A stretch of DNA of 64,000 bases, from the NCBI GenBank assembly GCA_037129835.1, contig JBAXUE010000002.1:2334-66333 (forward strand), written 5' to 3'. The notes beneath the pieces were generated by a model. The model was given only the letters and a program-made list of their open reading frames with translations, searched no databases and was not told the origin of the DNA. Within the stretch, counting starts at the first letter, position 1, and each line of letters begins with the position of its first letter. Of the stretch, positions 1,317 to 58,143 are shown in pieces. The translations under genes were made by a program, and so were the position numbers. The stretch is from a bacterium (GTDB taxonomy: Bacteria > Patescibacteriota > CPR2 > UBA1875 > CAIMLA01).

Positions 1317-2169
1317 TATTCAAAAAAACATATTACTTTCTAAATACACTACTTTAGGAGTAGGTGGACCGGCTAAATATCTGGTAATCGTAAATACAAC
1401 GGAAGAACTAATCGAGGCGCTTGATTATGCGAGGAACAAACACTTAGAGTTTGCAATTATTGGTGGAGGGAGTAATCTTTTAGTCTCAGATAAGGGTTTT
1501 TATGGCCTTGCGATAATAAATCGTTCTGGCTCTTGGCGTAAAGAGGGGTCTTATATCGTCGCAGATAGTGGCGCCAACCTTACTAAAGTGGCCTATGACG
1601 CTTTAGAGGCTGGTTGGACCGACTTAGCCTTCGCTTCTGGCATTCCCGGAAGTGTTGGAGCCGCAGTAGTTGGTAACGTCGGTGTACCAGATAGTAGTAT
1701 TTCAGATGTATTGGTTTCCACCATAGTGTGGGATGGAGGTCTAATAAAAGAAATTGTGAATTCGGAACTTAATTTTGGCTATCGCACATCAATATTAAAA
1801 CAAAATCGTGATGTTGTAGTAATTTCTGCAAAATTTAAGTTATCAAATGGTAAGATGGACGACACCTTAAAAATAATTCTTGAGGATAAGAAAAGACGGG
1901 CATTTTCTTACGTGGGACGTACTGCGGGAAGCTATTTTAAAAATCCGAAGGGTGATAAATCGGCTGGCGAATTAATAGATTCACTCGGGCTAAAAAGTTA
2001 CTCTATCAGAGGTGCAGAAATCAGCCAAAATCATGCGAATGTTATCCGTAATATGGGCGAAGCAACAGCGGGTGACATATATGACCTAGAAAAATATGTA
2101 ATTGAAAAGGTTAAGGATGGCTATAACATTACTCTTGAGCCAGAGGTCGTTAAACTGGGCAAATTCTAA
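1309..2169 (+). CDS. murB: UDP-N-acetylenolpyruvoylglucosamine reductase MurB
   Basis: FAD-binding motif LGVGGPAKYLV...IIGGGSNLL. Length and domain order fit MurB. The internal ATG at 1309 gives a shorter overlap with the upstream gene than the 1294 ORF start. Confidence 0.85.
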   Translation: MINIQKNILLSKYTTLGVGGPAKYLVIVNTTEELIEALDYARNKHLEFAIIGGGSNLLVSDKGFYGLAIINRSGSWRKEGSYIVADSGANLTKVAYDALEAGWTDLAFASGIPGSVGAAVVGNVGVPDSSISDVLVSTIVWDGGLIKEIVNSELNFGYRTSILKQNRDVVVISAKFKLSNGKMDDTLKIILEDKKRRAFSYVGRTAGSYFKNPKGDKSAGELIDSLGLKSYSIRGAEISQNHANVIRNMGEATAGDIYDLEKYVIEKVKDGYNITLEPEVVKLGKF

Positions 2170-2528
2170 ACAAGAAGCCACCTTGGCATACATATTCGCG
2201 AAAACATATACACTTCAGTGGCTTCACGTTAGAAGTAGAGTGCTTTATTTGGGCAGTCACTACTTTTTGCCTAACGTACTCCTTTGTTAAGACGTAAACC
2301 TATATTGGGGTCCGTAGCTCTCATTACTTTCGCTTTGGCTTTTTTTAATCACCGAAGTTTCTGTAAAAAGTCGAGCACGTAGCTCCAGCCTTGGCAAGTA
2401 TAGGTCACTATCTTAACCGGGAGAGTTGTGGCCTGAAATTATTAAGACACAACTCTCACGATTAACATTAGAATTATATCATGGTTTAGGATTTGACCGT
2501 AATAGCGAATTTTTAATAACCAAAAGTC

Positions 2529-5033
2529 TTACAAAGGAGTAATTGTTGGAGTTGTTGTTGGAGTAATTATTAGTGTTGGGGTCGGGGTTGGAGTAATGGT
2601 CGGTGTGGGTGTTGGTGTGGGGATAATTTCACAAACATCTTGTGGTATTTGGGCTGCGTCTGTAGATAATCCGTTCGCTTGCGCCCAGGCAATGATTGGT
2701 GCAAACCACCTAGAATAAGCACCGTCTGTTGCAGGTATTTCTGCGGTTACGGCACCGATAGTTTTTGTTTCGGTATTTTCTGCAGTGGGAGGGCAGGATG
2801 GGTTTACTTGTTTGCCAGTTAATTTATTTATTTGGATGTCGGATGATTGCCCATTAAAGTCAGGTACTTTGTACCAAGAAGGGAAAATATCGGTAACAGT
2901 TTTTTTGCTATTCGCACTAGGTTTTCTTCCAGTAATTGCATCTAGGGTAACTGTTTTAACGCCGCTTGGTCTTTTGAACTGTTCGACAGCAGTATTAGCC
3001 AGAGCTTTTTCCATAAAGTCATGCCAGATAGGAGCAGCAGCGAAGGCACCACCGCCAGAAGTCATTGGAGTGCCATCATTATTGCCAGACCATACCCCGG
3101 CGACTAAGCTTGGAGTATATCCGACGGTCCAAGCATCTTTATAGCTGTTGGTTGTCCCTGTTTTTGCGGCTGCTGGACGTCCGCCAAGAGAGAGGGCACT
3201 ACCAGCACCGAACGTTTGTGCTCTAGCGGAATCGTCTGAAAGAACATTGCTCATTATGTAGGCAACTTGAGGGTCGAGCACTTGTTTACCTGTTTTGTCT
3301 GTATATTCATCGAGTGTTTTGCCTTTGCTGTCTTGAATTTTTACAAACCAACTCGTATCTTTTTTGACACCTTGATTAGCAAAAACTCCATATGCACTTG
3401 TCATGTCTAATAGTTTTACTTCTCCTGCGCCTAGAACAAGGGATAGACCGTATTGGCTTGGGTCATTAAGCGTAGTAATACCCATAGCGTGAGCAGTATC
3501 GATGGTCTGTGTTAGCCCGGCTAGATAAAGTGTTTTTACTGCAGGGATATTTAATGAATTTTGAAGGGCTGTTCTCATCGATACTGGACCCCAGAAACCA
3601 CCACTATAATTCTGGGGAACATAGCCTGCACCGAAATCTGTCTTCAGGTCATAGAGAATACTTCCAGCGCCAGTGTTGGCGTCTTTCCACGCAGTCGCGT
3701 ATGCAAAAGGTTTAAAGGAGGAACCTGGTTGTCTATCGGATATCGCTATATTTACCTGACCATCAATTTCTTCGTTAAAATAATCTCTACTCCCAACCAT
3801 TGCAAGAATCTGCCCTGTTTTTGGATCTATTGCCACGAGACCTGCGTTTGTGGCGCCATAACGACTTTTGTTTTTATCAACATTCGCGGCTACTGCCTCT
3901 TCGGCGGCTTTTTGTTTTTCGAGGTCAATTGAGGTATAGACTTTTAATCCACCAGTATTTACCAACGTTTCCCCATATTTTTTAACGAGTTGTTCTTTGA
4001 CATACATTACAAAATGAGGCGCCTCTATTGAACCATATGGATTATTTGAAAAAATAAGTTTTTCCTTTTTTGCTGCAACCGCTTCGGCTTTTGTAATATA
4101 CTTTTGATCTGCCATAAGATCGATAATCATGTCTTTTCTTGTCATCAGGTCGGTTACATGATTTCCGAAGGGAGAATAATAAGTGGGCGCGTTTGGTAAC
4201 GCAGCCAGAAGGGCGCTTTCTGCGATCGTTAAGTCTTTCATCTCTTTGTTGAAAAATGTACTTGAAGCTACTTTAATACCATAAGCATTTGAGCCATATG
4301 GGATTTCGTTGAGATACATTTTAAGAATGTCATCTTTTTTATACATTTGTTCGATTTCCATTGAAAGAATTATTTCTTTGGCTTTACGAGTAAGAGAACG
4401 TTCATTTGTTAGGATAGCATTTTTTACAAACTGTTGAGTGATTGTAGAGCCGCCGCCTTTTGATGAGTTCCTGGTGATTATACCCGTGACAGCTCGGCCG
4501 ATACCAAAAATGTCAAAGCCCCCGTGTTTATAGAAATTTTTATCCTCAATAGCAACTGTCGCATTTTTTACATTCTTTGGAATCTCATCCCAGCTTGCAA
4601 GTATGCGGTTTTGATCACCGTGTATTTCGTATAAGATTTTGCCATTTCTGTCGAAAATTTGGGTAGATTGGGCGGAAACCTTGGCATTTATTTTATCGGG
4701 GCTCGGTAAGTCCTTAGCAAACCATAGAAGTAGTAAGCAAAAAATAGCAAAAAGAACTAGCACGACAATACCTACCTTGATTAGTCCTTCTTTCGTCGTA
4801 AAAAGATATTTAAGGTATGCTTTTATATCTTTGAATTTAAAGTTTTTAAAATTTAATTTAATGGCAGTAACAGATGAACCAGATTTTACAACCTTGTTGC
4901 TACGAAAAGGTTTTTTTGAGGTTCCAACAGAGCTAGAAACAGAGGCTGTCCTTTTCCTTTTAGAGCGTGGAGATTTTGGGAAAGTGCTGTATTTCTGCTT
5001 AGAGAATCGTGAACTTTTTTTGCCAAAAGGCAT
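2529..5033 (-). CDS. Class A penicillin-binding protein (transglycosylase + transpeptidase), with a basic N-terminal tail and a C-terminal Pro/Thr repeat
   Basis: GT51 motifs (EDKNFYKHGGFD, RKAKE). Transpeptidase SxxK (GSSFKP), SxN (SLN) and KTG (AAKTGT) motifs. A single TM helix. C-terminal PTPTPTPTITPTPTPT. Confidence 0.9.
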   Translation of the reverse strand: MPFGKKSSRFSKQKYSTFPKSPRSKRKRTASVSSSVGTSKKPFRSNKVVKSGSSVTAIKLNFKNFKFKDIKAYLKYLFTTKEGLIKVGIVVLVLFAIFCLLLLWFAKDLPSPDKINAKVSAQSTQIFDRNGKILYEIHGDQNRILASWDEIPKNVKNATVAIEDKNFYKHGGFDIFGIGRAVTGIITRNSSKGGGSTITQQFVKNAILTNERSLTRKAKEIILSMEIEQMYKKDDILKMYLNEIPYGSNAYGIKVASSTFFNKEMKDLTIAESALLAALPNAPTYYSPFGNHVTDLMTRKDMIIDLMADQKYITKAEAVAAKKEKLIFSNNPYGSIEAPHFVMYVKEQLVKKYGETLVNTGGLKVYTSIDLEKQKAAEEAVAANVDKNKSRYGATNAGLVAIDPKTGQILAMVGSRDYFNEEIDGQVNIAISDRQPGSSFKPFAYATAWKDANTGAGSILYDLKTDFGAGYVPQNYSGGFWGPVSMRTALQNSLNIPAVKTLYLAGLTQTIDTAHAMGITTLNDPSQYGLSLVLGAGEVKLLDMTSAYGVFANQGVKKDTSWFVKIQDSKGKTLDEYTDKTGKQVLDPQVAYIMSNVLSDDSARAQTFGAGSALSLGGRPAAAKTGTTNSYKDAWTVGYTPSLVAGVWSGNNDGTPMTSGGGAFAAAPIWHDFMEKALANTAVEQFKRPSGVKTVTLDAITGRKPSANSKKTVTDIFPSWYKVPDFNGQSSDIQINKLTGKQVNPSCPPTAENTETKTIGAVTAEIPATDGAYSRWFAPIIAWAQANGLSTDAAQIPQDVCEIIPTPTPTPTITPTPTPTLIITPTTTPTITPL

Positions 5034-5153
5034 GATTGCTCCTAATTTATTTTGATTTTATAGCTAAAAAGTGTTTTAATTAACTTGTTAAGTCGTGCTT
5101 ACGACTAAACAGATTATACTTAATTTATATATAAAATGTCAAGGAAGCAAAAG

Positions 5154-6329
5154 ATGAATAAAATTGAAGAAATACTTACTCGCGGCGTTACGGATGTTAT
5201 TGTCAAAGAAGATCTTGAAAAAGTTTTGAAAAGTGACAAAAAGTTACGTATTAAACTAGGTATAGATCCCACTGGCCCAAAACTACATATTGGTCGAGCA
5301 ATTTCCTTGTGGAAGCTACGTGAATTCCAGGACTTAGGACACCAAATAGTTTTGATAATTGGAGATTTTACGGCTCAAACAGGGGACGCCTCTGATAAAA
5401 CAGCAGAAAGACAAATTCTCACACCCGAAGTAATAGCCAAAAATATGAATACATATAAGCAACAAATCGGTATGATTCTCGATATGGATAACGTAGAGAT
5501 ACGCTACAATTCAGAATGGTGGGGTAAGATGAGTGCTGGAGAGTTATTGCAAGAAGCAGCAAATTTCACCGTCAACCAACTAATCAAACGAGATAACTTT
5601 TGGCAAAGATGGGAAAATGATAAACCAATTGGTCTGCATGAAATATTGTACCCGTTGCAACAGGGTTACGACTCTGTTGCCATAAAGGCCGACGTGGAGA
5701 TCGGTGGTAATGATCAGCTGTTTAATCTGCTGGCAGGCCGGACAATGCAAAAAAAATATGGTCAAAAAGAGCAGAATGTAATCACTTTCGAGCTTTTAGA
5801 GGGTACTGACGGACGCAAAATGAGTACTAGTTATGATAATTGTATATATATCGAAGATGAGCCAAATGAAATGTTTGGGAAAATTATGTCGATCAAGGAT
5901 GAATTGATTTTGCGTTATTTGAAGTTAGTTACAGATATACCGATTGGTGAGGTTGAAATGATCAAGCTTGACTTAGAAAATGGGATGAATCCTAGGGATG
6001 CCAAAGTTATTTTAGGTAAAGCACTCGTGTCTAGATATCATGGGGTAGAAAAAGCCGAAGAAGCAAGTCAACATTTTCAGCAAGTTTTCGTTAATAAAGA
6101 AAAACCTACCGCGATTGAAGAGATTGAAATTTTGAAAAAGAAATGGCAGCTTGCAGAACTATTACATTTCGCAGGTTTGGTTTCCTCGAAAACAGACGGA
6201 CGTCGAATAATAGAACAGGGTGGTGTAAAAGTCGATGGAGCCGTGATAGGTGACAGAGAGGCTACCGTTAATTCTACAAGTGGTATGGTCATTCAGGTTG
6301 GCAAGCGAAAATTCATTAAAATAAAATAG
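5154..6329 (+). CDS. tyrS: Tyrosyl-tRNA synthetase
   Basis: Class I HIGH-like motif (P.G..LHIGR), KMSTS (a KMSKS variant) and a C-terminal S4 domain (GRRIIEQGGVKVDG). An AAGGAAG RBS precedes the ATG at 5154; the ORF-track start at 5136 has no RBS. Confidence 0.85.
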   Translation: MNKIEEILTRGVTDVIVKEDLEKVLKSDKKLRIKLGIDPTGPKLHIGRAISLWKLREFQDLGHQIVLIIGDFTAQTGDASDKTAERQILTPEVIAKNMNTYKQQIGMILDMDNVEIRYNSEWWGKMSAGELLQEAANFTVNQLIKRDNFWQRWENDKPIGLHEILYPLQQGYDSVAIKADVEIGGNDQLFNLLAGRTMQKKYGQKEQNVITFELLEGTDGRKMSTSYDNCIYIEDEPNEMFGKIMSIKDELILRYLKLVTDIPIGEVEMIKLDLENGMNPRDAKVILGKALVSRYHGVEKAEEASQHFQQVFVNKEKPTAIEEIEILKKKWQLAELLHFAGLVSSKTDGRRIIEQGGVKVDGAVIGDREATVNSTSGMVIQVGKRKFIKIK

Positions 6330-9239: not shown

Positions 9240-9375
9240 CGTCAGCATTCGCTGGCGCATGACGCAGATTGACTAACGTCAACTGTTTTATGCTTTCGCG
9301 ATGCTTCCTCTCCCGACAAAATTAGATAAATTTTGTCGGCAACGAGAAATATTAACGATAAAACTAGGAGGAACT

Positions 9376-9693
9376 ATGTTACACGTAGATGATACAAACT
9401 TTGAAAAGGAAGTAGTAAAAAGTGATATTCCAGTAATAGTGGATTTTTTTGCAGATTGGTGTGGACCTTGTAAAATGATGGGCCCAATCTTTGAGGAAGT
9501 AGGAAAAAAGTTTCATGGTAAAGTTAAATTTGTTAAATTAAATGTCGACGAAGCCCAGAAAACAGCACAAAAATACGGTGTTATGAGTATTCCGACATTG
9601 ATTACCTTTAAGGTCGGTGAGCCAGTTGATACTTTGGTAGGACTTCAGGACGAAGATTCACTGTCAGAAAAAGCAGAAAAACTTTTAAAGTAA
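9376..9693 (+). CDS. trxA: Thioredoxin
   Basis: WCGPCK active site and about 105 aa. An AGGAGG RBS precedes the ATG at 9376. The longer 9301 ORF start has no RBS and would run through a leader hairpin. Confidence 0.85.
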   Translation: MLHVDDTNFEKEVVKSDIPVIVDFFADWCGPCKMMGPIFEEVGKKFHGKVKFVKLNVDEAQKTAQKYGVMSIPTLITFKVGEPVDTLVGLQDEDSLSEKAEKLLK

Positions 9694-49925: not shown

Positions 49926-51197
49926 TTAGATTTCGACTACTTTACGATCACGAACCGCTAGTTTGACGTTTAAGTTTCGAATTAATTGGGTCTTTTCGGA
50001 CTCAGAACCCTTTTCGAGCACATATTTGGCATAACCTTTGATTACCTCTGTTTTGGAATATTTTTTGTTGGGATTCATGGTTTCGAGCATGTTCTCGAAC
50101 TTTTTAATGGCTTTGGCCAGTCCTGGCTCAATCGATATCTTCTTAACCGTCAGTCTACTGGAAATGATTAGTAGCTGTTCCACTAGGTCCCTTTCGGTTA
50201 TATACGGCTCGTGGCATTCATCTTTGGCGTGTCTGACACAGTGATAGTAAACATGACGGTTTTTATCCCCATTTTTAAGTTTCTTGAACTTTTCTTCACC
50301 AACCATCATTGCACCGCAACTGTAGCAGGTCAAAAATCTCCGAAATGTAAATTCCCTGGAACCCCATTTAACTCTTTTAGGGGCTACGATCTGTTTTTGG
50401 GCTTCGTCAAACAGCTCTTTGGTCACTAATGGTTCATGGGAACCTTTATACCATTTCCCGCTACCGATCGGATATTCAAACATTCCATAGTAGAAAGGAT
50501 TCTTTAGCATTAAATATATTGAGCTTAGGTTCACAAGCTTTCCTTTTCTTGAAGTGGCTCCAATGATGTCTAACCAGACTTTGAGAGTGCGGCCACTCTC
50601 ACCTTTAGCCGCTCGTTTGAACATCTCTGTGACAAACGGTCCACGTTCGGGATCAATGACAATATCATGAACCCCGGCCATCACTCGATTGTAATAACCG
50701 ATTGGCGGCATACACGGTCTCCAGCCCATCTCACATTTAGCCCTGATGCCTCTTTTTACGCTCTCGCCTCTGTTGTCGTTTTCAAGCTTGGCTTGAGAGC
50801 AGAGAATCATCAGCATAAACTTCTCGCTCGGAGTGTTTGTAAAGCTTTGGGTGAAGGTTCTGATTTTAAGAAGTTTCTTATCGTCCATCAGATCCACTAG
50901 CGAACCCAAGTCGCCAGCATTTCTTGAAAGTCGGTCGGGTGCCCAGGTAAGTAGGCTATTTACCTCGCCGCTCCTTAAATCGGTCAGTAACTGCATAAAA
51001 ACTGGTCGTTGTCCCGATTGTTTGGCGGAATAGCTTTCCTGAAGAACTTTGACGACATTAATGCCTTCTTTGACTGCTAACTCCTTCATTTCTTTGATTT
51101 GAGAATCAATTGACATCGCTTGCCGCTCATCAGACTCGGATGATTTTCTGGCGTAAAGGCAGTACTTTAATTCGACTTTATCTGCTGTATTTTCCAT
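49926..51197 (-). CDS. Large serine recombinase (resolvase/integrase family)
   Basis: N-terminal resolvase catalytic domain (YARKSSESDERQ..SIDSQ.....V.E), a recombinase domain, and a C-terminal zinc-ribbon-like CYSCG...YYHC. 423 aa. Confidence 0.8.
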   Translation of the reverse strand: MENTADKVELKYCLYARKSSESDERQAMSIDSQIKEMKELAVKEGINVVKVLQESYSAKQSGQRPVFMQLLTDLRSGEVNSLLTWAPDRLSRNAGDLGSLVDLMDDKKLLKIRTFTQSFTNTPSEKFMLMILCSQAKLENDNRGESVKRGIRAKCEMGWRPCMPPIGYYNRVMAGVHDIVIDPERGPFVTEMFKRAAKGESGRTLKVWLDIIGATSRKGKLVNLSSIYLMLKNPFYYGMFEYPIGSGKWYKGSHEPLVTKELFDEAQKQIVAPKRVKWGSREFTFRRFLTCYSCGAMMVGEEKFKKLKNGDKNRHVYYHCVRHAKDECHEPYITERDLVEQLLIISSRLTVKKISIEPGLAKAIKKFENMLETMNPNKKYSKTEVIKGYAKYVLEKGSESEKTQLIRNLNVKLAVRDRKVVEI

Positions 51198-51322
51198 CGG
51201 GGACGATGGTATCGCTGATTTGAGAGGAATGTAAGTAGAAAATTTGATTATCTTAGGTACAAAAGTGTTTATTTTCTAATCTTTTTGCTATATATTGAAG
51301 ATAGTTTAAAAAAGGAGCAAAT

Positions 51323-52528
51323 ATGCCAGGAGAAGCACCAGCACCATATGAACCAGATTATAAAGAGCACGAAGAAGTTTATGAGACTATGACGGATGAG
51401 CAGGAAAAGCTTACTAGAGAACGAGAAGCTGAACAGTTTAATCGGGAGAATGATCCCAGTATAGCGTTCGAAATGGCGCGACAGGAAGACTACGGCTACA
51501 CTCAAGTAGAGTATCTTACTCGACTTGGGGAAATTTTGGATAAAAGTGACGATGAGATAAATAAGTATGAAGCTACCCATGCTTTAGTTGACGAATATCG
51601 TGAGAAAGTGGACGAGGGGCATAGATTTGGAAGAAGTATACGCTTTAAAGACTTTGCACTGGGTAATAGCTTTACCGAAGATAGGGACAGAAGAGTATCT
51701 AAGGTAGAAACTCCAAAAGACCTTGAAGAGGCGAAGGATTGGACAAAACGACAAGCAGAAGACGCGGCTGAATATTACCAAAGAAGAGGAAGACAAGAAA
51801 AGTTTCTCCAACAGGTCGGGGATCAGCTTTATGAAGAAATAGGGCTTGAGAAAGGTCAGCCATTATCGGCGGCCGAAAATACAGAGTTTCAAAAAGAGCT
51901 TAAGGATAGAGTAGAGAAAGCGAGAGAGGAATATTCATATTCAGACCTTCTTGCGGAGGTCCACTCAATATGGGCAACATACAATGTCTTATGGGGTAGG
52001 ATTACGAATATATTGGAAGATGAAAGAGCAAAATCTCATGTTAAGGGAAGGGAGTCCAGGGATCAAGACGTTGAGCGGTTCGATCTACCATCGCTAGATG
52101 ACAGAGATACTGGCGATGCCCTTGGTGGGAAAATCGAGTATATGTACCCAGAATCTGTTGGGAATGTGATGGGAAGGCTAATCTTACGAAAAATGGACAT
52201 CACAAAGGGCAAATACGCCGGCAACCTTGTTGTTAAGGAAGAGTCTCCACTTCAAGGAAAAATCGATTCATGGGTGGAGCAATATAAGGATCTGGCTGGA
52301 CTTGGCTTTAATTTCGATAGCAAATATGGGCTTCTGGACGCTACGCTATCGAAATTACTCGAAGAAGAATTAATACAACGCTCGCTTACGCCTGAAGCTT
52401 ATAAAGATAAAGATAAGAGGGCTAAGCTTATTAGCCAAATTGGAAATGAGTATAACGCACCCAAAATGCTCGCTGGTGTAGCGGAAAACGAGCTTAAGCG
52501 TAGATTTAATAAGGAAGAGACGATATAA
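51323..52528 (+). CDS. Highly charged 401-aa hypothetical protein (cargo of the integrative element)
   Basis: An AAAGGAG RBS is present. E/K/R/D-rich and probably coiled-coil, with no recognisable catalytic motif. Divergent from the recombinase gene. Confidence 0.5.
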   Translation: MPGEAPAPYEPDYKEHEEVYETMTDEQEKLTREREAEQFNRENDPSIAFEMARQEDYGYTQVEYLTRLGEILDKSDDEINKYEATHALVDEYREKVDEGHRFGRSIRFKDFALGNSFTEDRDRRVSKVETPKDLEEAKDWTKRQAEDAAEYYQRRGRQEKFLQQVGDQLYEEIGLEKGQPLSAAENTEFQKELKDRVEKAREEYSYSDLLAEVHSIWATYNVLWGRITNILEDERAKSHVKGRESRDQDVERFDLPSLDDRDTGDALGGKIEYMYPESVGNVMGRLILRKMDITKGKYAGNLVVKEESPLQGKIDSWVEQYKDLAGLGFNFDSKYGLLDATLSKLLEEELIQRSLTPEAYKDKDKRAKLISQIGNEYNAPKMLAGVAENELKRRFNKEETI

Positions 52529-55269: not shown

Positions 55270-55297
55270 AAAAGGAAGCCTCGGGGCTTCTTTTTTT
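55270..55297 (+). terminator. Rho-independent terminator after rplA
   Basis: GAAGCC-tcgg-GGCTTC stem followed by TTTTTTT. Confidence 0.75.
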
Positions 55298-55361
55298 ATA
55301 TGAGATATTATATATTATTCACACAAGTGGTATTATTAATCTTGTATAAGAAGGAGTAATC

Positions 55362-55745
55362 ATGGACAAGATAGCCAATATATATAAATGTGATGTTTGT
55401 AATAAAGTAGTCGAGATCATCGGTGCAGGTGATGGTGAACTTTACTGTGATAATAAACCGATGGCACTACAATTGCCAAAAACTGGAGACGGGGCCGTAG
55501 AGAAGCATGTTCCTGTCGTAGAAAAAACCAACCAAGGCTATTTGGTTAAAGTAGGTTCTATCGCTCATCCAATGGAAGAGGCTCATTATATTCAGTGGAT
55601 TCAGTTAGAAGTGGCAGGCGTTCTGTATAGAAAAAATCTTCAACCAGGATATAAACCAGAATTTGAATTTGTTGTAGAAGGTGAGGACAATGAAATTGTT
55701 GCTACAGCATACTGTAATATCCATGGCTTGTGGAATAACTTATAA
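55362..55745 (+). CDS. Desulfoferrodoxin-type superoxide reductase (2Fe-SOR)
   Basis: N-terminal desulforedoxin-like CDVCNKVV...CDNKP (Cys4 centre I). C-terminal centre II ligands (HVP...H...CNIHGLW). An AAGGAG RBS is present. Confidence 0.8.
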   Translation: MDKIANIYKCDVCNKVVEIIGAGDGELYCDNKPMALQLPKTGDGAVEKHVPVVEKTNQGYLVKVGSIAHPMEEAHYIQWIQLEVAGVLYRKNLQPGYKPEFEFVVEGEDNEIVATAYCNIHGLWNNL

Positions 55746-55790
55746 TATAATCATAAATCATCATTATTAATAACTTCAAAGGAGGGGGAT

Positions 55791-56303
55791 ATGGTCGAAG
55801 TAAAAAAGGAAGAAAAGAAAAATAATAATATACTAATTGTTTTATTGGCAATATTACTGACCACTCTATTGGTCGGTGGCACCACTTGGTATTTTATGGA
55901 CCAAAATGCAAAAAATGAAAAAATCACAACAGATGCGGCGATTTCAAAATTAAACAAAAAAATCACCACTTCTGAGAAAAACAATAAAAATACGGTTACG
56001 CCAACTCCTACTGTTTCGGCTGCGTTGACCCCAACACCGACCACCGCCAAAGACACCGTAGAAGCGCTAAGAACCTTCTGCCAGGCTAATGGAGCCCAAA
56101 ATGCCGTTACGGGTGGGATTAGTTACATGGAGTCAGCAAATGGGATTTATGGCAATTGTAGTTTGGAAAATGCAATGTTAATTTCAACAAACGTTAATGG
56201 AACCTGGACGAAGATTTATACAGGTAACGGCGTTATCGAGACCGCCCTTTGTGACCAATATAAGATCCCAAATAAAATGAGCGGTGGTACTTGCAATTAC
56301 TAG
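55791..56303 (+). CDS. Membrane-anchored secreted protein, paralog 1 (TM anchor, Thr/Pro linker, C-terminal 4-Cys domain)
   Basis: N-terminal TM helix, a TPTPT-rich linker, and a C-terminal domain with 4 Cys ending ...YKIPNKMSGGTCNY. An AAGGAGGGGG RBS is present. Paralogous to 56322-56858. Confidence 0.7.
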   Translation: MVEVKKEEKKNNNILIVLLAILLTTLLVGGTTWYFMDQNAKNEKITTDAAISKLNKKITTSEKNNKNTVTPTPTVSAALTPTPTTAKDTVEALRTFCQANGAQNAVTGGISYMESANGIYGNCSLENAMLISTNVNGTWTKIYTGNGVIETALCDQYKIPNKMSGGTCNY

Positions 56304-56321
56304 AGAAAAAATAGGAGTATT

Positions 56322-56858
56322 ATGACCAAAGAACTAGAAACTACAAAAAAAATAATAGATAGACGTAAAATGACTGTTGTTGTAGGAATAACTACAGTAG
56401 CGGTGGCTTTAGTTTGTGGTGCAGTTTGGTATTATATGGCACAGCAAGAAAATTTTTCTACCGAAAAAACTAAAAAAGAAACAGTCATTTCGAAAGATAG
56501 CATAATAGTAACAGCGTCGGTAACACCTACAACTACAATATCTCCTTCAGGTACTCCGTCGCCAACACCAACGATTAAAACAAATACTAATAGCGCTCAA
56601 GCGTTAAAAGCATTTTGCCAAGAGAATGGTGGTTCAAGTGATGCGACGGATGGAATAAGTTATATGGAGACGGCAAATGGTGTTTATGGTATCTGTACTA
56701 TGGTAAATGGGAAAACCTTAGAAAGCACAACATTTATAGCCGCTGAGATAAGTGGTGTATGGACTAAGGTTTGGAATGGGAATGGTGTGATTGATCTTAC
56801 TACTTGTAATAAATATAAGATCCCAAATAAAATGAGCGGTGGGGCCTGTAACTACTAA
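56322..56858 (+). CDS. Membrane-anchored secreted protein, paralog 2
   Basis: Same architecture as paralog 1. The C-terminal domain aligns (AFCQENGG...ISYMETANGVYG.C......CNKYKIPNKMSGGACNY). Confidence 0.7.
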   Translation: MTKELETTKKIIDRRKMTVVVGITTVAVALVCGAVWYYMAQQENFSTEKTKKETVISKDSIIVTASVTPTTTISPSGTPSPTPTIKTNTNSAQALKAFCQENGGSSDATDGISYMETANGVYGICTMVNGKTLESTTFIAAEISGVWTKVWNGNGVIDLTTCNKYKIPNKMSGGACNY

Positions 56859-56875
56859 AAAATATAGGGGGAATT

Positions 56876-57436
56876 ATGCTAAAAGTAAAAGATACTTCAA
56901 AAAATAAAATTAACTGGCGAATAATCGTCATAACTGTAGTGGTTGCCTTAGTAACTGCTGGCGCAGTAGGTGGCGGTGTCTGGTATAATATGGACCAAAA
57001 TGAAAAAAATGCTAAGACGGCAAACGAAAAAGAATTAGCAACTCTTAAAAGTCAAATTAAAGACACTCCTACGATTACGCCAACTTCTAACCCGACACCT
57101 ACTTCAACATCAAAAGCCGATATCGTTCTTACTGATAGTGATTATTTAAATTTTTTAACTATAAATAAATCAGGATGGGTAAAGACAGATTCTTATGTTG
57201 CGCCTATTATATCGAAAAATGATGGAACTTGGGCTATTACATCTCCGTTGCCAATTTTATATGACACCACGAGCGGGTATCACATTCCTGGCATGGGTGG
57301 TTCTATCTATGTTTGGCATAAAGTAAGTGGTTCATGGGAATTTGTTGGACAAGGGGGAGAGGGTGGATATGATGATGCAGTAAAGGCAGTTTATTCCCAA
57401 ATTCCCATCACTGTCATTCCAGAAAGTAGTCGCTAG
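56876..57436 (+). CDS. Membrane-anchored secreted protein, paralog 3 (same anchor and linker, different Cys-free C-terminal domain)
   Basis: TM anchor and a TPT linker (DTPTITPTSNPTPTSTSK), followed by a distinct Gly/Trp/Tyr-rich domain. An AGGGGGAAT RBS is present. Confidence 0.65.
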   Translation: MLKVKDTSKNKINWRIIVITVVVALVTAGAVGGGVWYNMDQNEKNAKTANEKELATLKSQIKDTPTITPTSNPTPTSTSKADIVLTDSDYLNFLTINKSGWVKTDSYVAPIISKNDGTWAITSPLPILYDTTSGYHIPGMGGSIYVWHKVSGSWEFVGQGGEGGYDDAVKAVYSQIPITVIPESSR

Positions 57437-57597: not shown

Positions 57598-57680
57598 ATG
57601 GTGGGGGAAAATACGTAAAAATATAGACAAGTGGTGTACAGGTGGTGTAAAATGGTGACACGTGGGGAATAGTGGGGAAA
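57598..57680 (+). promoter_or_regulatory. Putative MraZ operator: phased direct repeats (G/A)TGG(T/G)G upstream of mraZ
   Basis: GTGG at 57600, 57631, 57642, (ATGG) 57652, 57662 and 57672 give a 10-11 bp periodicity, immediately upstream of the mraZ start at 57721. Confidence 0.5.
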
Positions 57681-57720
57681 CGGAGGGTTTTCCCCCTACT
57701 CCGCGAAAGGGGCAAAAAAG

Positions 57721-58143
57721 ATGTTTATCGGTGAATACCAACACAATTTGGATGATAAAGGAAGACTAGCTATCCCAGCGAAGTTTCGTGGACAGCTCTC
57801 AGAGGGTGCTGTAGTTACGAAGGGTTTGGATAATTGTCTTTCTTTGTTCACAAAAGAGGGCTGGGACTTTGAAGCCGAAAGACTGATGAACCTACCGCTA
57901 ACACAGGCTAAGGCTCGTGCCTACGCTCGTTTCATGCTCTCTAGTGCGTTTCCAGTAGAAATAGATAAGCAGGGTAGGGTTAACGTACCACAAGCGCTTA
58001 GAAGCTTTGCGGGGATTTCAGGAAGCACAGTAGTTACCGGACTCGGAGACCATGTTGAAATCTGGGCTCCAGAGGCTTGGGAAGAATATCGATCGCACAT
58101 TGAAAAAGATAGCGGCAATATTGCCGAAGAATTAGGAATTTAA
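57721..58143 (+). CDS. mraZ: Transcriptional regulator MraZ
   Basis: Tandem MraZ/SpoVT-AbrB-like halves (LDDKGRLAIPAKFR ... IDKQGRVNVPQALR). Confidence 0.9.
   Translation: MFIGEYQHNLDDKGRLAIPAKFRGQLSEGAVVTKGLDNCLSLFTKEGWDFEAERLMNLPLTQAKARAYARFMLSSAFPVEIDKQGRVNVPQALRSFAGISGSTVVTGLGDHVEIWAPEAWEEYRSHIEKDSGNIAEELGI

Follow-up and report, generated by a model that had tools for sequence, protein, structure and literature searches.

Three tandem genes in front of mraZ in a Patescibacteria genome share an anchor, stalk and linker and carry different small heads

The 64,000-nt stretch of Patescibacteria DNA analyzed here (assembly GCA_037129835.1, contig JBAXUE010000002.1, positions 2,334 to 66,333 of the forward strand; from here on the window) contains a tandem array of three genes, P1, P2, and P3, whose products are annotated as hypothetical proteins (database entries MEI6266587-89; locus tags WCP14_01745-55). 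We report that the three proteins are built on a common chassis consisting of a short Lys-rich cytoplasmic N-terminus, a hydrophobic helix, a continuous helical stalk, and a disordered Thr/Pro-rich spacer of 20–27 residues that leads to a small globular outer head, and that the four-Cys head of P1 and P2 represents a hitherto undescribed family, scarce in public data and present in contigs of Patescibacteria type. The best explanation of these observations as a whole is, in our view, that the array encodes a wall-spanning display chassis with exchangeable binding heads, a reading that we hold to be probable.

A common chassis with different heads

The genes, their parts, and the repeats that they share are as follows:
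55791–56303, plus strand: P1, 170 aa; K-rich tail 55791–55829, membrane helix 55830–55898 (aa 14–36), stalk 55899–55979, linker 55980–56048 (aa 64–86), four-Cys head 56049–56300 (aa 87–170)
56322–56858, plus strand: P2, 178 aa; membrane helix 56370–56441 (aa 17–40), Thr/Pro/Ser linker ~56508–56585, four-Cys head 56586–56855 (aa 89–178)
56876–57436, plus strand: P3, 186 aa; membrane helix 56921–56992 (aa 16–39), stalk 56993–57061, Thr/Pro linker 57062–57127, head 57128–57433 (aa 85–186)
55872–55917, 56412–56457, and 56966–57011, plus strand: repeat D1, 46 nt, encoding the GGxxWYxMDQ end of the membrane helix; identity to the P1 copy is 78% in P3 and 61% in P2
56249–56307 and 56804–56862, plus strand: repeat D2, 59 nt, encoding C-x-x-YKIPNKMSGG(T/A)CNY and the stop codon; 83% identical, with a perfect run of ~30 nt

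The positions of the three open reading frames and a ribosome binding site for each, both claimed in an earlier interpretation made without database searches (the sequence-only reading), were confirmed, with Shine-Dalgarno sites AGGAGG at 55780–55785 (P1), AGGAG at 56313–56317 (P2), and AGGGGGA at 56866–56872 (P3), 3–5 nt before each ATG. P1–P3 are real genes, with orthologs in other metagenomes and a ratio of nonsynonymous to synonymous substitution rates (dN/dS) of 0.03 in the head.

Each protein contains a single strongly hydrophobic segment (best Kyte-Doolittle 19-residue window, 2.35–2.46) of 23–24 uncharged residues (aa 14–36 in P1, 17–40 in P2, and 16–39 in P3), which ends in a GGxxWYxM(D/A)Q motif common to all three; the fifth Cys of P2 (Cys32) lies within this membrane helix. 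Because 4–6 Lys/Arg residues precede the segment in each protein, the positive-inside rule places the N-terminus in the cytoplasm and the remainder outside, and P1–P3 are predicted to be bitopic or secreted with their heads outside the membrane. In an AlphaFold2 (AF2) model of P1 built from 31 homologs (mean predicted local distance difference test score (pLDDT) 80.7), one continuous helix (aa 12–63) spans the membrane and the stalk, and the Thr/Pro run (aa 66–84) is disordered (pLDDT <50). Hydropathy, charge distribution, and the P1 model thus bear out the layout of anchor, Thr/Pro linker, and small ectodomain that had been suggested for all three proteins.

Full-length identity between P1 and P2 is 41% (E 5e-45), and identity in the head is 55%. 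P3, which had been described as keeping the anchor and linker and carrying a different domain, indeed matches P1 and P2 only over its N-terminal ~90 residues (E 5e-11 and 6e-10), and its head is Cys-free and Gly/Trp/Tyr-rich. Among the open reading frames of the window, the anchor motif is confined to P1–P3. The complete arrangement of a K/R-rich N-terminus, a hydrophobic helix ending in GGxxWYxM(D/N)Q, a helical segment, and a T/P/S-rich spacer is present in P1–P3, and the same chassis is found in P3 orthologs, in the protein P0009, in a 219-aa protein of L010, and in a set of paralogs in L018.

Alternatively, the hydrophobic segment could act as a Sec signal peptide that is cleaved off, in which case the mature protein, beginning near WYxMDQ, would be released as a soluble exoprotein. 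Small residues do occupy positions −3/−1 before the conserved WY (A-G-A|V in P3, V-G-G|T in P1, and C-G-A|V in P2), this pattern recurs across the family alignment, and, with the G-rich end assigned to a c-region, the hydrophobic cores shrink to only 15–19 residues. However, the uncharged stretch itself is 23–24 residues long and forms part of the single helix in the AF2 model; moreover, the segment and WYxMDQ are conserved among paralogs with unrelated heads, and the anchor is under purifying selection (dN/dS 0.12–0.26), which is unusual for a disposable signal peptide. We therefore consider cleavage unlikely, although it is the most serious competitor of a retained anchor. Two other modes of surface attachment were tried and rejected. 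Lipoproteins would need a lipobox, but the first 90 residues of P1 and P3 are free of Cys and the A-L-V-C context of Cys32 in P2 misfits such a motif; and the C-termini (...GGTCNY, ...GGACNY, and ...VIPESSR) have neither an LPXTG motif nor a hydrophobic tail for anchoring by sortase.

Monoderm bacteria have surface proteins that are tethered N-terminally by a signal-anchor and contain Pro/Thr-rich wall-spanning or inter-domain linkers, such as the PT boxes of Cellulomonas cellulases. P1–P3 resemble these proteins in having a single N-terminal membrane helix, a disordered Thr/Pro spacer, and a small distal folded module. The class A penicillin-binding protein (PBP) of the same genome (2529–5033, minus strand; Transgly and Transpeptidase domains) ends in the same repeat style, with the C-terminal sequence PTPTPTPTITPTPTPT, as the sequence-only reading had pointed out. 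Unlike the tethered monoderm proteins, the heads of P1–P3 match no described family tested, and the anchor, stalk, and linker form a conserved module that is reused across unrelated heads. Thus, the general kind of protein is familiar, whereas the head domain and the reusable chassis appear to be undescribed.

An undescribed family of four-Cys heads

The head of P1 and P2 is predicted to be an α/β domain of 85–90 residues in which a helix is followed by a four-stranded sheet and two short helices. In the AF2 model of P1, the order of helices (H) and strands (E) is H87-100/E106-115/E118-125/E129-135/E138-145/H151-157/H161-164 with the strands antiparallel, and block pLDDT values for the head (aa 87–170) are 92–95 except for one loop block at 77. 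When 1.84 billion protein cluster representatives were searched exhaustively by HMMER with the P1/P2 head profile, 46 proteins reached E≤1e-3, and 10 of them E≤1e-10. P1 (6.9e-44) and P2 (7.2e-50; match 89–178) match the profile, with its pattern FC...NGxYGxC...W...GNG...C..YKIP...C, over its full length, and independent members score down to 1e-22. Most of the 46 relatives are 150–200 aa long and have, after an anchor that often contains GGxxWYxM, a coiled segment and a T/P/S/E-rich spacer that lead to the head; one family member is annotated as "Patescibacteria group bacterium". A second set of relatives is lipoprotein-like, with 2–3 tandem units and lipobox-like N-termini, and a profile of 25 of these units aligned with the head family in hhalign at 97.6% (E 4.7e-12, 81 columns).

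Scans of P1–P3 against Pfam, NCBIfam, and PHROGs gave no model at cut-off, the weak matches lying essentially on the membrane helix, and a PDB sequence search with the family profile gave membrane-helix matches only. With no sequence family matched in any of these four collections, the four-Cys head is not a known housekeeping domain, as had been anticipated. Foldseek comparison of the P1 model with PDB and BFVD yielded nothing at E≤1e-3, the top matches being generic β-meanders; in GTDB species genomes, neither the P1/P2 head nor P3 as query led to a confirmed relative; and a literature search found no description of the four-Cys family. DUF333 (PF03891), a small Cys-containing lipoprotein domain, shows a weak local FCxxNGG...NGxYGxC resemblance to P2 over 43 residues only (19 bits, E 0.0018, cut-off 25 bits); this match was seen in 1 of 31 family members and was taken as chance. 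Of note, a word-indexed protein search retrieved P2 alone when queried with P2 and 11 proteins when queried with the domain profile, and this tool under-reports: it missed P1 even though P1 is in the collection and has a 10-residue exact word in common with P2, and its negatives need caution.

The head cysteines are residues 97, 123, 154, and 168 in P1 and 99, 125, 162, and 176 in P2 (C1–C4). C1 and C2 are invariant in 31/31 aligned members; C3 and C4 are both present in 20/31 and both absent in 9/31, and in 2/31 a nearby Cys replaces C3 while the tail Cys is kept. The tandem-repeat lipoprotein units retain the C3–C4 pair only. The spacing is 26 residues between C1 and C2 and 14 between C3 and C4, and there is no CxxC motif. 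Because cysteines are lost in pairs, are widely spaced, and lie in a part of the protein that is predicted to be extracytoplasmic, we infer two structural disulfides, one joining helix to strand (C1–C2) and one closing a C-terminal loop (C3–C4), rather than a metal site; the two disulfides proposed earlier for this domain are supported by paired Cys gain and loss over the 31 relatives.

The same evidence bears on the idea that the four cysteines bind metal or act as redox thiols in an oxidative-stress unit. A superoxide reductase (SOR) is encoded by the first gene of the unit to which P1–P3 probably belong (see below), and adjacency of SOR and P1 recurs in close strains. However, in addition to the absence of CxxC, the wide spacing, and the loss in pairs, homologs elsewhere are not beside SOR, the head would be separated by the membrane helix from SOR, which has no secretion signal, and P3 has no Cys at all. 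We regard such a role as very improbable. A thioredoxin encoded at 9301–9693 was considered as an extracytoplasmic oxidase and rejected, as it has no convincing membrane segment.

The four cysteines and the common YKIPNKMSGG(T/A)CNY tail of P1 and P2 are as described in the sequence-only reading. Because this tail is conserved across a whole subclade of proteins from other samples (P0010, P0011, and P0054-58), its near-identity in P1 and P2 reflects constraint. The ~30-nt identical run of D2 lies at the 3′ ends of two genes that are otherwise saturated at synonymous sites, and local gene conversion may have acted on top of the constraint on the protein.

In its predicted structure, P1 shares traits with type IV pilins and pseudopilins: the N-terminal hydrophobic helix is long, the sheet consists of four antiparallel strands, and a disulfide would bound a loop at the C-terminus. 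Unlike type IV pilins, P1–P3 have no class III signal of the form G(-1)/F(+1)/E(+5), their head is set apart from the N-terminal helix by a disordered linker of 20–27 residues, and the helix packed on the sheet is a separate one. With the class III signal absent from P1–P3 and no N_methyl (PF07963) match in P1–P3 or in the pilin-like relatives, a pilin or pseudopilin identity was rejected. In those relatives, which form a subclade (P0015, P0019, P0025, and P0029), a short leader with a terminal Gly precedes F/M and a hydrophobic helix (e.g., QKG|MAALE in P0025), an arrangement that is prepilin-like by eye. The only pilus-linked context seen is in L022 (5001–9368), where the gene for family member P0043 is directly followed by one for a prepilin (MNNQKG|ISVIE), with pilB, pilC, and a gene for an N_methyl pilin after it.

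For the head of P3, sequence comparison gives a hint of a possible distant relationship to the four-Cys head. The P3 family aligns weakly with the four-Cys head family (hhalign E 0.076, probability 0.7%) and with the lipoprotein repeats (E 0.0021, probability 13.5%), and both weak alignments cover the same G-x-W-x-x-V-x-x-G hairpin. The structure model of P3 is poor (pLDDT 49.4) and has, at low confidence, the helix-then-strands order of the four-Cys head.

Gene content of the rplA–mraZ slot and exchange of modules

P3 orthologs were found at 85, 84, 78, 57, and 38% identity, and the P3 ortholog is syntenic with mraZ in every relative found; a metagenome scan with P3 re-found known contigs only. 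In L001–L003, in which the P3 relative is 57% identical, the order is NusG-L11-L1-P3-MraZ without SOR, P1, or P2. In L015, a P1 ortholog (85%) directly precedes the P3 ortholog (84%) with no P2 between them, and in L024, SOR is followed by a P1 ortholog (90%) and then by a start resembling that of P3. Upstream of P3, L006 has an unrelated two-Cys C-terminal fragment, and L010 has the 219-aa protein with the same anchor and linker and a third kind of head; P0009 combines the same anchor with a fourth head. Contigs from the same strain repeat the array of the window, and P2 is present in L012 and L013 and was found only in this strain's contigs. SOR–P1 adjacency is also seen in L013, L014, and L024, and the P1 ortholog P0056 is 90% identical. 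We conclude that in this lineage the resident of the interval from rplA to mraZ is P3, a conserved gene, that SOR, P1, and P2 are strain-variable additions, and that strains differ in whether the slot holds zero, one, or two four-Cys genes or heads of other kinds.

The slot contents of L001, L015, L006, and L010 bear out the expectation that copy number differs among strains. By contrast, the proposal that the array had been inserted together with SOR between rplA and the dcw cluster stands only in part: SOR, P1, and P2 are extra relative to L001, but P3 is resident there. Nor does the array occupy the place of rplJ-rplL, as had been assumed; because these genes are missing at this position also in the L001 relative without SOR, P1, and P2, they were not displaced by the array. 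The separation of rplKA from rplJL is a lineage feature, as this relative has rplA followed directly by the P3 ortholog and mraZ (L001, 1540–3934). Neither rplJ nor rplL occurs anywhere in the window (1–64000), in which ClpP and a NIF3-like gene precede rpoB. The view of the array as a recent local expansion also failed. Because P1 and P2 are saturated at synonymous sites, P2 is not a fresh duplication but an old paralog that was gained or lost, and L015 lacks P2 between P1 and P3.

Synteny also raises the alternative that P1–P3 are accessory proteins of envelope biogenesis or cell division tied to the adjacent mraZ-rsmH-ftsL-ftsI-mur cluster. The constant position of P3 next to mraZ, constraint on P3 as strong as that on mraZ, and the Thr/Pro style at the end of the class A PBP all agree with this idea. 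Yet, a terminator and a separate promoter/operator region lie between P3 and mraZ, genes of the P1/P2 type are found elsewhere beside trkA/rpsI, gyrA, HSP20, and pilB, and presence or absence between close strains is unexpected for core division factors. In addition, matches to bitopic proteins of the FliL, RodZ, and MapZ type cover only residues ~4–67, i.e., the membrane helix, at 16–21 bits against cut-offs of 131–208, and this identity was rejected. Overall, we find a role tied to the division cluster improbable, less so than a redox function but more so than cleavage of the anchor.

Selection was estimated as dN/dS by the Nei-Gojobori method, with the following results:
P1 head: 0.03
P3 head: 0.03–0.09
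Stalk and linker: about 0.2
Anchor: 0.12–0.26
mraZ: 0.05
Because dN/dS in the heads is this low, the heads are conserved functional modules under strong purifying selection and not diversifying antigens.

Comparison of the window with three strains revealed a step in sliding-window nucleotide identity, from 52–83% over most of the anchor, stalk, and linker to 92–100% just past the junction with the head. The maximum chi-square breakpoints against the three strains are at 57133, 57128, and 57124, and the P3 linker/head junction is at 57128. In the comparison with L010, identity rises from 65% left of the breakpoint (n=246) to 97% right of it (n=578), and reaches 100% through the mraZ upstream region. 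Because synonymous divergence is lower in the head (0.26–0.44) than in the 5′ module (0.56–1.5), the data speak for recombination where the modules meet rather than for rate differences alone. Exchange of modules is independently supported because paralogs in L018 share their 5′ ends but have unrelated heads: in this independent metagenomic contig, four chassis-bearing genes are clustered within 4 kb (1567–5495), and three of the four are 78–85% identical over the first 150 nt while their heads are only 10–24% identical at the amino-acid level. One of these three paralogs carries a four-Cys head. A "WK-x-Y...F-x-YP-x-W" head is present in two of the four L018 paralogs and also in L010 and P0047.

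Several points weigh against a display chassis with exchangeable heads. The identity step could arise in part because the low-complexity 5′ module evolves faster and aligns less well, and the anchor-only synonymous divergence rests on about 32 codons. Chimeric assembly of short contigs is a possible source of the mosaic signal. The genomic contexts of family members elsewhere are heterogeneous, with four-Cys members lying in the unrelated neighborhoods named above. To these points is added the pattern of small residues before the conserved WY.

As a functional analogy only, the locus can be compared with the Vlp/Vsp-type loci of mycoplasmas, which encode variable surface (lipo)proteins whose N-terminal module is conserved and whose C-terminal parts can be exchanged. 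Clustered paralogs, a conserved 5′ module, unrelated 3′ parts, and strain-variable gene content are common to both. Unlike in the Vlp/Vsp-type loci, P1–P3 have no lipobox, no repeat-driven phase-variation tracts or invertible promoter were seen, and the heads are strongly conserved rather than hypervariable.

Proposed working, transcription unit, and neighborhood

In the proposed working of the display chassis, P1–P3 would insert through Sec with the N-terminus inside and the C-terminus outside, and the stalk and spacer would carry the heads off the membrane and into or through the cell wall. Because purifying selection on the heads is as strong as that on mraZ, each head may bind a fixed ligand. 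Diversity would be generated not by mutation of the heads but by recombination in the shared 5′ module that alters which heads are present on the chassis and how many genes there are.

In PMC11623550, all cultivated Patescibacteria are described as living attached to other microbes, and host recognition as little understood. Against this background, the locus provides a small set of candidate surface-exposed modules for host recognition, including an uncharacterized, predicted disulfide-locked domain with a confident predicted structure, and its gene content differs between close strains. We tentatively extend our working hypothesis to a broader one, which we think more doubtful: the chassis would serve as a recombination handle in Patescibacteria, by which conserved heads are swapped, duplicated, and deleted at hot-spots such as the rplA–mraZ slot; the resulting repertoires would set host or substrate specificity, and the four-Cys fold would be one unseen among solved structures. 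If the combination of chassis and heads holds, surface proteins of Patescibacteria could be found from sequence alone and differences between strains linked to host range; if it does not, P1–P3 would be ordinary lineage-specific envelope proteins.

The following features delimit the array and its probable transcription unit:
55275–55299, plus strand: hairpin GAAGCCTCGGGGCTTC followed by TTTTTTT, after rplA, upstream boundary of the unit; read in the sequence, and listed on the minus strand in a hairpin scan
55362–55745, plus strand: SOR of the desulfoferrodoxin type (Pfam Desulfoferrodox 8e-22, Desulfoferrod_N 9e-9), 127 aa
57463–57492, plus strand: intrinsic terminator after P3, downstream boundary of the unit; 8-bp stem with 5 GC pairs, then TTTTTTATTAT
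Because the intergenic gaps are short (45 nt between SOR and P1, 18 nt between P1 and P2, and 17 nt between P2 and P3) and terminators consisting of a hairpin and a T-run are found around the array only after rplA and after P3, SOR-P1-P2-P3 probably form a single transcription unit. The terminator after P3 is kept in L006, L010, and L001.

Upstream of mraZ (ATG at 57721) lies a promoter-like sequence, TAGACA-18-TAAAAT (57624–57690). It is overlapped by GTGGTG/GTGGGG/GGAGGG direct repeats with a spacing of ~10–11 nt, which are conserved in relatives as distant as L001 and resemble operator boxes for MraZ. Farther upstream, the interval 49926–52528, flanked by the tRNA-Trp/rpmG region on one side and secE-nusG on the other, encodes on the minus strand a 423-aa protein of the large serine recombinase type (PHROG integrase 4e-62). 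The acidic open reading frame beside it, of 401 aa, has no family match, and the pair may be the remnant of an integrated element. Finally, ribosomal protein L1 (54351–55253) is 300 aa long, with the Pfam L1 domain at residues 104–293 and a Lys/Glu/Thr-rich N-terminal extension of ~100 aa; its ortholog in L001 has 302 aa.

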